Virus record (IMG/VR): IMGVR_UViG_2563366951_000001
Location: 1 to 34,825 of that record
Source: a virus
Taxonomy: Duplodnaviria; Heunggongvirae; Uroviricota; Caudoviricetes
DNA length: 34,825 nucleotides
Direction: 5' to 3' (one strand)
Position numbers and translations under genes: made by a program. Numbering within the stretch: the stretch's first letter is position 1; each line of letters starts with the position of its first letter. Shown here piece after piece: positions 3,587 through 4,048 of this stretch. The notes beneath the pieces are model-generated. The model ran no database searches, was not told the DNA's origin, and saw nothing but the letters and a program-made list of their open reading frames with translations.

Positions 3587-4048
3587 ATGCGATCACCTTA
3601 TTACTTCAATAACTGTTCAGTCTCTGCATATCGACCCTGCAAGGTCGGTTAGTTTCTCCACAAAACAGAGAAGAACACCTGCGATGACTGCCGCCTGGAT
3701 GGATTGGGTTATGAGCCCGTCGTCCGGTGATGCTCTTCTCTGTTTTGTAAAAAGGATGGTACCAGCCGGAAGCAAGGGTACAAACTGGTACCGTCAAGAC
3801 TACACACAGCATAAAGTTGTGGTTCCGGGTGCCTCCCGGTGTCTGGCGAAGGTTGCACACCAGACGGGTGGGTATCCACAGAAGGTCGACTGTCAGCCTC
3901 AACCTTAACCCGCGTGCGCTGAGCCGCATTCACCACAACGCTAAGGATTCTCTCTGGTTGAAAATACTTAGCTGTTATGTGCCTGTCTTTTCACCACTTC
4001 AGGCTCGGTGGTATCCTTTTAAGCCCGTATACATAAAAGGAAAATCAA

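Follow-up and report, generated by a model that had tools for sequence, protein, structure and literature searches.

A probable two-part RNA cassette in the early-left transcription unit of an e14/SfV-like lambdoid prophage

Results

A probable small RNA, a terminator and a structured leader ahead of xis

The DNA analysed here (the window) is a stretch of 34,825 nucleotides, positions 1–34,825 of IMG/VR record IMGVR_UViG_2563366951_000001. It is an e14/SfV-like lambdoid prophage of Escherichia coli and matches strain ECONIH5 at 100%. The interval between xis and the first early-left open reading frames (ORFs), positions 3600–4048, is in our assessment a portable RNA cassette of two parts (probability roughly 0.7). 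The cassette belongs to the early-left PL unit and is read on the minus strand, in the leftward direction: a small RNA (sRNA) that ends at an intrinsic terminator comes first, and a leader that folds into a three-way junction follows. In the first part we see a divergent relative of STnc100/PasD, a family of prophage sRNAs. A sequence-only reading of the window had proposed a regulatory RNA here, which fits the upstream half; the interval is structured and works at the RNA level, but it holds two RNA elements and not one. Feature coordinates are collected in Table 1.

The conserved block and its flanks

The whole unit is a cassette that recombination has placed ahead of different genes, because the left-hand homology breakpoint falls just after its last hairpin (P4) and the first gene beyond P4 differs among phages: a yfdP-like gene (MSNDRMT...), an RdgC-like gene (MNNPFFKN...) or, in the window and in e14, xis. 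In BLAST searches against phage genomes, homology ends at 3627 and 4011 irrespective of the neighbouring sequence. These searches and an alignment of 18 homologs gave at least 90% identity inside these limits and unrelated sequence outside. The description of 3600–4048 as a non-coding, structured stretch holds, but the conserved unit is rather ~3627–4011. This ~385-bp block occurs with three left flanks (xis, the SfV orf32/yfdP family and a third type) and several different right flanks, always at the same prophage position, and matches 2,784 of 5,426 complete E. coli genomes at a median of one place per genome. Its K-12 counterpart, 90% identical, is the e14 locus annotated as 'ymfH'. In most relatives the cassette fronts yfdP-like or RdgC-like genes and lies ~3 kb from xis and int, as in SfV, mEp460, ST64B, phiNP and LLS.

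The features first noticed in the raw sequence were confirmed. The perfect 15-bp inverted repeat, ACAAAACAGAGAAGA (3660–3674) and TCTTCTCTGTTTTGT (3734–3748), is present with its 59-bp spacer, and a repeat search extended its arms to 18 nt at 94% complementarity (3660–3677 and 3731–3748). Shuffling 3600–4048 300 times gave perfect inverted repeats of at most 12 bp at spacers of up to 120 nt, compared with the 15 bp observed. The two smaller hairpins are also present (CCGGGTGCCTCCCGG at 3825–3839 and GTCTGG...CCAGAC at 3841–3846 and 3860–3865), and the G+C content is balanced, at 0.497 in 3600–4048 compared with 0.44–0.45 in xis and int and 0.42 in 4049–4880.

A proposed STnc100-like small RNA with a tRNA-like core

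At curated thresholds, the Rfam scan that had been suggested for the interval gave no match in the window, and a permissive scan gave only a sub-threshold match to STnc100 (RF02076) at 3746–3969 on the minus strand, with 33.6 bits (gathering cut-off 47), E = 3.6e-5 and model positions 1–206. The homologous elements of SfV (39.5 bits), sal3 (37.5), ST64B (35.1) and K-12 (29.2) likewise all score below 47. Permissive matches to THF, ftsZ-DE and miRNA families were at chance level and were dismissed. The STnc100 match pairs the closing helix, the CCGGGAGGCACCCGG hairpin beside its 3′ strand, and the terminal hairpin with U-run, and an independent fold concurs: the proposed sRNA folds (−87.2 kcal/mol, z = −3.9) into a multiloop of five hairpins closed by GUUGUGGU/ACCACAAC.

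The closing helix is found in 22 of 31 representative relatives and covaries between GUUGUGG/CCACAAC and GUUGUGA/UCACAAC. The hairpin that abuts it, at the position of a T-arm, is replaced in relatives by GGUGG-AGGCA-CCACC, GCGGC...GCCGC, CCAGA...UCUGG or a true T-arm, GUGGGUUCGAAUCCCAC. Across Salmonella, Klebsiella, Citrobacter and uncultured phages the interior of the core is hypervariable, and what persists despite this is the closing helix, the abutting 5-bp hairpin and the unpaired UGCUGUGUGUAGUCUUGG.

The closing helix and its adjacent hairpin are best read as the remnant of an acceptor stem and T-arm, since in one relative (L224) the homologous slot, with the same acceptor sequence (UGUGGUU/AACCACA), scores 43.9 bits against the Rfam tRNA model (RF00005, cut-off 29). 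This tRNA-like gene (1077–1203 of that locus, minus strand) combines a D-arm with a true T-arm and carries 64 nt of inserted sequence in the anticodon region; ARAGORN did not call it. The insert contains GGUUCAUAACC, a second CAU-type loop, and the gene stands directly upstream of the terminator and leader. The window element shares with tRNA the acceptor-like helix of 7–8 bp with a hairpin abutting its 3′ strand, and its leader apex copies an anticodon stem-loop; unlike tRNA, its core lacks a D-arm and a T-loop, and the hairpin in place of the T-arm has a loop of 5 nt. Neither ARAGORN nor the Rfam tRNA model found a tRNA in the window, and ARAGORN found none in at least 30 related loci. In phiNP, Kp4866-6 and sal3 (L127, L128 and L131), the non-coding stretch between cI and the leader carries, upstream of the core, two perfect T-arm-like hairpins (UCUGG-UUCGAUU-CCAGA and GUCCG-UUCAAUU-CGGAC), and ARAGORN called no tRNA in that stretch.

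PasD was found by Hfq RIL-seq in prophages of pathogenic E. coli and was published as related to STnc100, and canonical STnc100 copies are expressed in lysogens. Like these RNAs, the window element is a structured prophage RNA of ~200 nt, and it has in common with them the closing helix, the abutting hairpin and the 3′ terminator; its score, its interior hairpins and the stretch before the terminator differ. The settings differ as well: canonical STnc100 lies in the late region near Q, stx (downstream of stx2), lysis and tRNA genes, whereas the window element lies between the PL-proximal ORFs and xis. Canonical copies also often form tandem arrays of three to five units with a period of ~253 nt beside tRNA genes and IsrI (L026, L042, L079 and L016). 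The arrays and the tRNA-like scaffold suggest an origin from, or co-processing with, phage tRNA genes. Canonical units appear not to be followed by the leader, because among the loci examined the apex motif of the leader was found only in leader-type loci and in the other contexts described below.

The terminator and the K-12 homolog

The sRNA ends at an intrinsic terminator, at whose position 86 of 88 distinct relatives carry a run of at least five T. Substitutions between the window and K-12 fall in the terminator loop and none in its stem. Published K-12 Term-seq data list three minus-strand 3′ ends within the homologous segment (Table 1), one of them at the last U of the terminator tract; the register of the printed strings was checked on the sgrS row.

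In a published re-analysis of K-12 Hfq RIL-seq data, the sRNA score of 'ymfH' was 0.113 for exponential phase and 0.094 for a second condition (the authors' threshold is 0.1). The K-12 RNA appeared in 81 chimeric fragments with three partners in exponential phase and in 117 in the other condition (three to four partners across the two), always as the second RNA of the chimera. In the same ranking the known prophage sRNA DicF scores 0.103, below 'ymfH'. The locus had already been flagged as a computational sRNA candidate, and ymfH, xisE and intE are reported to be induced by DNA damage in K-12. No 'ymfH' entry was found in Hfq CLASH supplements. For the e14 homolog, the published data show minus-strand transcription in the absence of induction and a working terminator, and they indicate an RNA with the behaviour of an Hfq-bound sRNA.

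DicF, encoded by the Qin prophage, offers a further comparison: it is a prophage sRNA that binds Hfq, with a RIL-seq score next to that of 'ymfH'. It lies within an early operon running toward int. It differs in being ~53 nt long and in having no tRNA-like core, and there is no sequence kinship beyond a weak match at the level of the terminator (28.5 bits, E = 0.016, in K-12).

The leader folds into a three-way junction

Directly after the U-tract comes the leader, whose minimum-energy fold is the three-way junction (−40.7 kcal/mol, z = −6.7). Its basal helix P1 has 20 bp: the 15 bp of the perfect repeat and, beyond them, G·U, C-G, A-U, U·G and C-G pairs. In P2, CCGGA/UCCGG is followed by an internal loop and an apex, GGG-CUCAUAA-CCC, and P3 is a short, variable hairpin. 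The sequence-only reading had noted the inverted repeat and allowed for a regulatory RNA; the repeat proves to be the base of a three-way junction on the minus strand, beyond a terminator.

In an alignment of 22 non-redundant sequences, 94.9% of the cells at predicted pairs can pair, compared with 37–54% when the partners are slid by one to three columns. Eight pairs have changed on both sides, including A-U to C-G, G-C to C-G and G-C to A-U in P1 and P2. Among relatives the pairing of the repeat is kept by compensatory change. G·U cells number 41 and A·C cells, which on the other strand would read as G·U, number 6; pairing would drop to 89.9% on the other strand. This excess of G·U over A·C points to the minus strand as the functional RNA. 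In most relatives the middle of P1 contains a C·U mismatch, which is conserved. With purifying and compensatory selection this clear, the suggestion that the interval is a degenerate element was not sustained.

The junction is followed by the nearly invariant linker GGAGAAAC and by P4, the last element of the module. The stems of P4 are unrelated in sequence between phages and carry loops of UGCA, GGCA or GUGCAG; in some phages the 3′ strand includes the Shine–Dalgarno sequence. No Rfam family matched the leader hairpin in enteric, remote or environmental loci. Three further assignments were rejected. Pairing between the U-tract and GGAG, which would lengthen P1, holds in the window only and fails in relatives with GUGUAUGGAG. 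The 3′ arm resembles a boxA (UGCUCUUUU), yet it covaries with its partner and is not fixed. An ops-like reading of P4 (GGCGGU...) fails because the motif is absent from the e14 type.

The junction apex and its likeness to initiator tRNA

The apex of P2 is identical over 14 nt to positions 28–41 of E. coli tRNA-fMet, including the three G-C pairs that mark the initiator, C32, U33, the CAU anticodon, A37 and A38; the tRNA-fMet sequence used was checked against the full set of 5,426 E. coli genomes. The 14-mer occurs once in the window and in none of 100 shuffles. One of the alternatives that we weighed is that the apex is a functional mimic of the initiator-tRNA anticodon arm. On this account it would bind the P site of the 30S subunit or initiation factor 3 (IF3), methionyl-tRNA synthetase (MetRS), or a nuclease of the VapC type; for the nuclease it would serve as a decoy carried in abundant early transcripts. 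We consider this possible but unlikely.

Several observations speak for it. A retrieval that used not the apex but the 3′ arm of P1 and GGAGAA brought in 71 leaders, of which about 70 keep a YUCAU loop on GGG/CCC; one has AACUAA. Searches of a viral collection in which single bases were forbidden recovered four leader contigs with a changed first anticodon position (UAU or AAU), four with a changed second position (CCU or CGU) and none with a changed third. VapC toxins of Shigella, Salmonella, Haemophilus and Leptospira are reported to cleave tRNA-fMet at the anticodon stem-loop.

The distribution of the motif is also broad. With one genome scanned per species, the full leader was found in 32 Enterobacterales loci from Escherichia, Shigella, Citrobacter, Enterobacter, Klebsiella, Kosakonia, Phytobacter, Leclercia, Atlantibacter, Mangrovibacter, Mixta, Erwinia and other genera. 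Among the remaining matches to the apex motif, 7 of 31 cap a flanking helix of 7–13 bp, compared with 1.1% when the flanks are shuffled. These remote capped matches come from Planctomycetes, Acidobacteria, Alpha-, Delta- and Gammaproteobacteria and Saccharibacteria, and those of their neighbours that could be named are genes of phages, for capsid, lambda-type portal, Dam methylase and a Clp_N/ClpX-zinc-finger protein. By ARAGORN, none of the non-enteric matches is an initiator-tRNA gene, and none has an Rfam family. In Raoultella (L368), as read from the ORFs, a small three-way junction that carries the motif lies between a Q-like gene and a holin. In an alphaproteobacterial prophage (L378) the apex hairpin precedes a gene for a Clp_N and ClpX-zinc-finger protein (6562–7854); the PL operon of the window also encodes a ClpX-type protein, which may be coincidence.

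Other observations weigh against mimicry. Position 37 of tRNA is a purine, but many leaders have U there (CAUUC or CAUUA). The flanking GAC and AAUCC are unlike tRNA, the rare leaders with UAU, AAU, CCU or CGU depart from the anticodon itself, and most matches came from motif searches, so that the 'invariance' arises partly by construction. A family of environmental viral contigs (L399, L400, L402 and L406) carries the scaffold GACGGGCU-NNNNN-CCCAAUCC in a longer outer helix and shares a downstream AAUGGAAAGAG, with no Rfam match; it keeps GACGGGCU..NNU..CCCAAUCC, and its loops read AGU, GAU, UAU and AAU. The scaffold, and not CAU, may therefore be the conserved feature. Pairing of the CAU loop with the downstream start codon was considered and rejected: it fits AUGAGY of the yfdP type and does not fit SfV orf32, the RdgC-like genes or xis. 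No description of a phage initiator-tRNA mimic or VapC decoy was found in the literature searched.

Only tentatively, then, and at low probability, would we assign the apex hairpin GAC-GGG-CUCAUAA-CCC-AAUCC to a widespread, undescribed phage RNA module that imitates the initiator-tRNA anticodon arm or, in more general terms, an anticodon-like U-turn loop on three G-C pairs. Such a module would lie in the most abundant early or late transcripts of phages from several bacterial phyla, where it would engage a universally conserved host component: the ribosomal P site or IF3, RNA polymerase, or defence nucleases of the VapC type that cleave tRNA-fMet.

Early-left transcription and the place of the leader in it

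Operator-like repeats, CTAAnnnnnCTTAG, stand at 4805–4821 and 4839–4856 and recur between cI and cro at 5533–5549 and 5582–5598. Because the repeats of the left operator (OL) overlap a promoter-like site on the minus strand, early leftward transcription most likely starts near 4795 and crosses 4048–3600 into xis and int, and PL probably drives transcription across the cassette. No N-like gene was recognised in the PL operon or among the Pfam-scanned ORFs, whereas Q is present.

An improbable alternative, for which the lack of a visible N speaks, is that the junction is a new processive antiterminator RNA of the put kind, which would stay on RNA polymerase through the terminators of the early-left operon. 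The put RNA of HK022 is likewise a cis-acting structured RNA in the early transcripts of an N-less lambdoid phage. A conserved partner such as RNA polymerase would explain the occurrence of the motif across phyla, and several copies stand at the start of long operons (early-left in enterics, at Q-like/holin genes in Raoultella, and upstream of portal in L345). The put elements, however, are ~70 nt with two stems, lie just downstream of both PL and the rightward promoter PR, and precede the terminators that they suppress; they bind the zinc-binding domain of the RNA polymerase beta-prime subunit. The window element does not resemble put. It occurs once per prophage, with none on the PR side, stands ~1 kb from PL and after the sole visible terminator, and its motif is absent from the HK022 PL and PR regions. 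In L388, moreover, the motif lies just downstream of a capsid gene whose ORF ends 18 nt upstream of it, and not at an operon start.

It is very unlikely that RNase III acts on the long stem to control xis and int, in the manner of lambda sib, although this retroregulation had been suggested from the sequence. P1 does reach 20 bp with G·U pairs on the minus-strand RNA and might be cut by RNase III, and the element resembles sib in forming a long RNA hairpin on a transcript that comes from PL and includes int and xis. Lambda sib, however, lies downstream of int and across att, so that its RNase III hairpin is confined to the read-through transcript from PL. The window element lies on the opposite side, upstream of xis, with no link to att. 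In most relatives it is also unlinked to int, as the ~3 kb that separate it from xis and int in the five phages named above show, where it precedes other genes. The conserved mismatch in mid-P1 also argues against the sib-like reading, and the conserved apex would be left unexplained.

That the perfect 15-bp repeat with its 59-bp spacer acts at the level of DNA, as a miniature inverted-repeat transposon, a paired protein-binding site or part of att, has hardly any probability, given the absence of a target-site duplication, flanking direct repeats and dispersed copies, the single syntenic copy per prophage, arms that covary with G·U pairs valid on one strand only, and a position away from int in most phages.

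'ymfH' is better read as RNA

The interval is annotated as a protein gene, YmfH in K-12 and a 'hypothetical protein' in many E. coli genomes. A minus-strand ORF of 103–107 codons is open in both K-12 and the window and has been annotated by the Prokaryotic Genome Annotation Pipeline (PGAP). Against a protein stand 39 substitutions between the window and K-12 that spread 14/12/13 over the codon positions, with no codon periodicity in any frame tested, as well as two indels of one base each, 55 nt from one another, which change the 'ymfH' frame; the K-12 and window ORFs therefore differ as proteins over much of their length. The substitutions gather in predicted loops and avoid predicted stems, and the translation is rich in Arg, Cys and Pro. 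No ORF of the interval has a Pfam match, and no frame is consistently open across the 31 representative relatives. The description of the interval as non-coding, with only short overlapping ORFs, is borne out, and the frame conserved across homologs that would have contradicted it was not found.

Cloned 'ymfH' has, in addition, a reported phenotype: in a retron-Sen2 screen, overexpressed e14 'ymfH' was among the prophage triggers of the RcaT toxin. The cloned ORF (4024–4335 of the K-12 locus, L003) covers most of the tRNA-like core, the terminator and the entire junction, so the active agent in that screen may have been RNA rather than protein. A small protein encoded here is accordingly a reading to which we give almost no weight, and the K-12 'ymfH' and the E. 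coli 'hypothetical protein' at this position are better read as RNA.

Gene neighbourhood

Table 1. Elements of the cassette and nearby genes (window coordinates).
Feature	Position	Strand	Details and basis
int	2233–3363	minus	
xis	3341–3586	minus	Pfam Exc, E = 6.4e-12; first gene downstream of the cassette, here and in e14
P4 hairpin, CGACCU-UGCA-GGGUCG	3632–3647	minus	Last module element; fold; breakpoint 3627 just after
Conserved unpaired linker GGAGAAACUAAC	3648–3659	minus	GGAGA(A) nearly invariant in all leaders
Three-way-junction leader	3660–3748	minus	P1 3748–3729/3679–3660; P2 3727–3723/3699–3695; P3 3694–3691/3684–3681
P2 apex CGGGCUCAUAACCC	3706–3719	minus	Three G-C pairs and 7-nt loop CUCAUAA; 14 nt identical to the E. 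coli tRNA-fMet anticodon stem-loop
K-12 Term-seq 3′ end 1201195	3749	minus	...CUGGUACCGCCCUUUUU then ACAAAACAGA (CCGCCCUUUUU before the cut); last U of the tract
Intrinsic terminator	3749–3795	minus	Stem GGUACCAG/CUGGUACC, 19-nt loop, U-tract 3753–3749; fold, −15.3 kcal/mol
Proposed STnc100-like small RNA, ~230 nt	3749–3978	minus	5′ end inferred, 3′ end at the terminator U-tract; Rfam, fold, K-12 homolog
Conserved unpaired stretch CUUUAUGCUGUGUGUAGUCUUG	3796–3815	minus	Between core and terminator; candidate seed region; UGCUGUGUGUAGUCUUGG nearly invariant in divergent relatives
K-12 Term-seq 3′ end 1201257	3812	minus	...ACCACAACUUUA; four bases past the acceptor-like helix
tRNA-like multi-branch core	3816–3939	minus	Closing helix GUUGUGGU (3939–3932)/ACCACAAC (3823–3816); 8-bp inverted repeat and fold
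Hairpin CCGGG-AGGCA-CCCGG (CCGGGTGCCTCCCGG)	3825–3839	minus	Abuts 3′ strand of the closing helix, T-arm position; exact STnc100 consensus
Internal core hairpin GUCUGG...CCAGAC	3841–3865	minus	Aligned to an STnc100 model helix; fold
K-12 Term-seq 3′ end 1201423, abundant	3979	minus	...GUGGUGAAAAGACAGGCAC; 13 nt downstream of the 3992–4011 hairpin
Upstream hairpin ACCACCGAGCCUGAAGUGGU	3992–4011	minus	Right-hand edge of module; kept as ACCACCGNGCCUGAWGUGGU in LLS, Eeyore, sal3 and L139
ymfI-like ORF	4049–4294	plus	No Pfam match
91-aa ORF (ymfJ-like)	4212–4487	minus	No Pfam match
73-aa ORF, ClpX-type C4 zinc finger	4496–4717	minus	First ORF of the PL operon; Pfam
Probable PL promoter with OL operator repeats	4802–4856	minus	−35 at 4830, −10 at 4802; promoter scan
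cI-type repressor	4884–5510	minus	Pfam
Q antiterminator	11353–11709	plus	Rightward operon

Among the ORFs scanned with Pfam on both sides of the interval, out to ~14.8 kb, were int, xis, an IS110 transposase, cI, cro, cII, Dam, RusA and Q but no reverse transcriptase, in agreement with the earlier judgement that no retron is present. Cro and cII lie on the plus strand to the right of cI (Pfam for cI and Cro).

The ymfI-like and ymfJ-like ORFs, on opposite strands, overlap by 83 bp, and the published K-12 Term-seq data list plus-strand 3′ ends antisense to ymfJ. The rightward operon also encodes a free-standing LexA DNA-binding-domain protein of 108 amino acids (8824–9150, plus strand). At the prophage edge, ~265 bp past the 3′ end of int, lies an IS110-family transposase (DEDD_Tnp_IS110 and Transposase_20; 691–1968, minus strand). 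IsrK and C4 antisense RNAs, which reach full Rfam scores in the rightward early region of SfV (L001, 5972–6160) and of a Stx2c phage (L005, 4858–5046), are absent from the window at curated Rfam thresholds.

Discussion

We propose that the cassette couples an sRNA to a conditional leader. By analogy with the K-12 homolog, the first part (~3978–3749) would accumulate as an Hfq-associated small RNA whenever transcription halts at the terminator, and the second part (3748–3632), comprising the junction, the linker and the final hairpin before the first gene, would be made only on read-through. While PL activity is low, the terminator would hold xis, int and the other early-left genes, or the recombination genes of other phages, at a low level, and strong transcription from PL after induction would pass it. 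The junction, the linker and P4 might then act in cis on the read-through message. Candidate effects are stabilisation of a 5′ end after processing, translational control through P4, processive antitermination, and recruitment of a factor at the apex.

Several points weigh against this interpretation. The STnc100 score is under the curated threshold, and the early-left position is unlike the late-region position of canonical STnc100. No sigma-70 promoter for the small RNA was found, either by promoter scan or by eye upstream of 3978 or 4011, so its 5′ end near 3978 is placed tentatively from the adjacent K-12 3′ end; it could arise by processing. The tRNA-like core upstream of the terminator is missing in 9 of the 31 representative relatives, one of which (L153) reads as PL followed by a short leader. 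As all 31 were retrieved through the leader motif, the sRNA body is better seen as a variable slot, and the terminator and junction as the constant part. The expression evidence comes entirely from the e14 homolog of K-12 and not from the window prophage, and the covariation counts derive from related sequences and are not independent events. Finally, an element that stands after the terminator cannot itself explain read-through, and the only antiterminator gene seen is Q.

Of the two halves, the sRNA is a sub-threshold and divergent relative of STnc100/PasD at a new genomic position, and for the leader neither Rfam nor the literature searched offers a counterpart. For the annotation of E. coli, this removes a phantom gene, 'ymfH', from an interval that about half of the complete genomes match. 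The STnc100/PasD group of prophage sRNAs is extended to a second position, in the early-left operon, and the tRNA-like scaffold suggests how RNAs of this group originate and how they might be processed. A conserved unit of terminator and leader is defined ahead of the early-left genes in a large N-less lambdoid group that includes e14, SfV, SfII, SfIV, ST64B, mEp460 and some Stx2 phages, and how transcription passes the terminator into the recombination, xis and int genes of these phages is now a testable question. If the likeness of the apex to initiator tRNA were functional, it would represent a new means by which phages handle the translation or defence machinery of the host.

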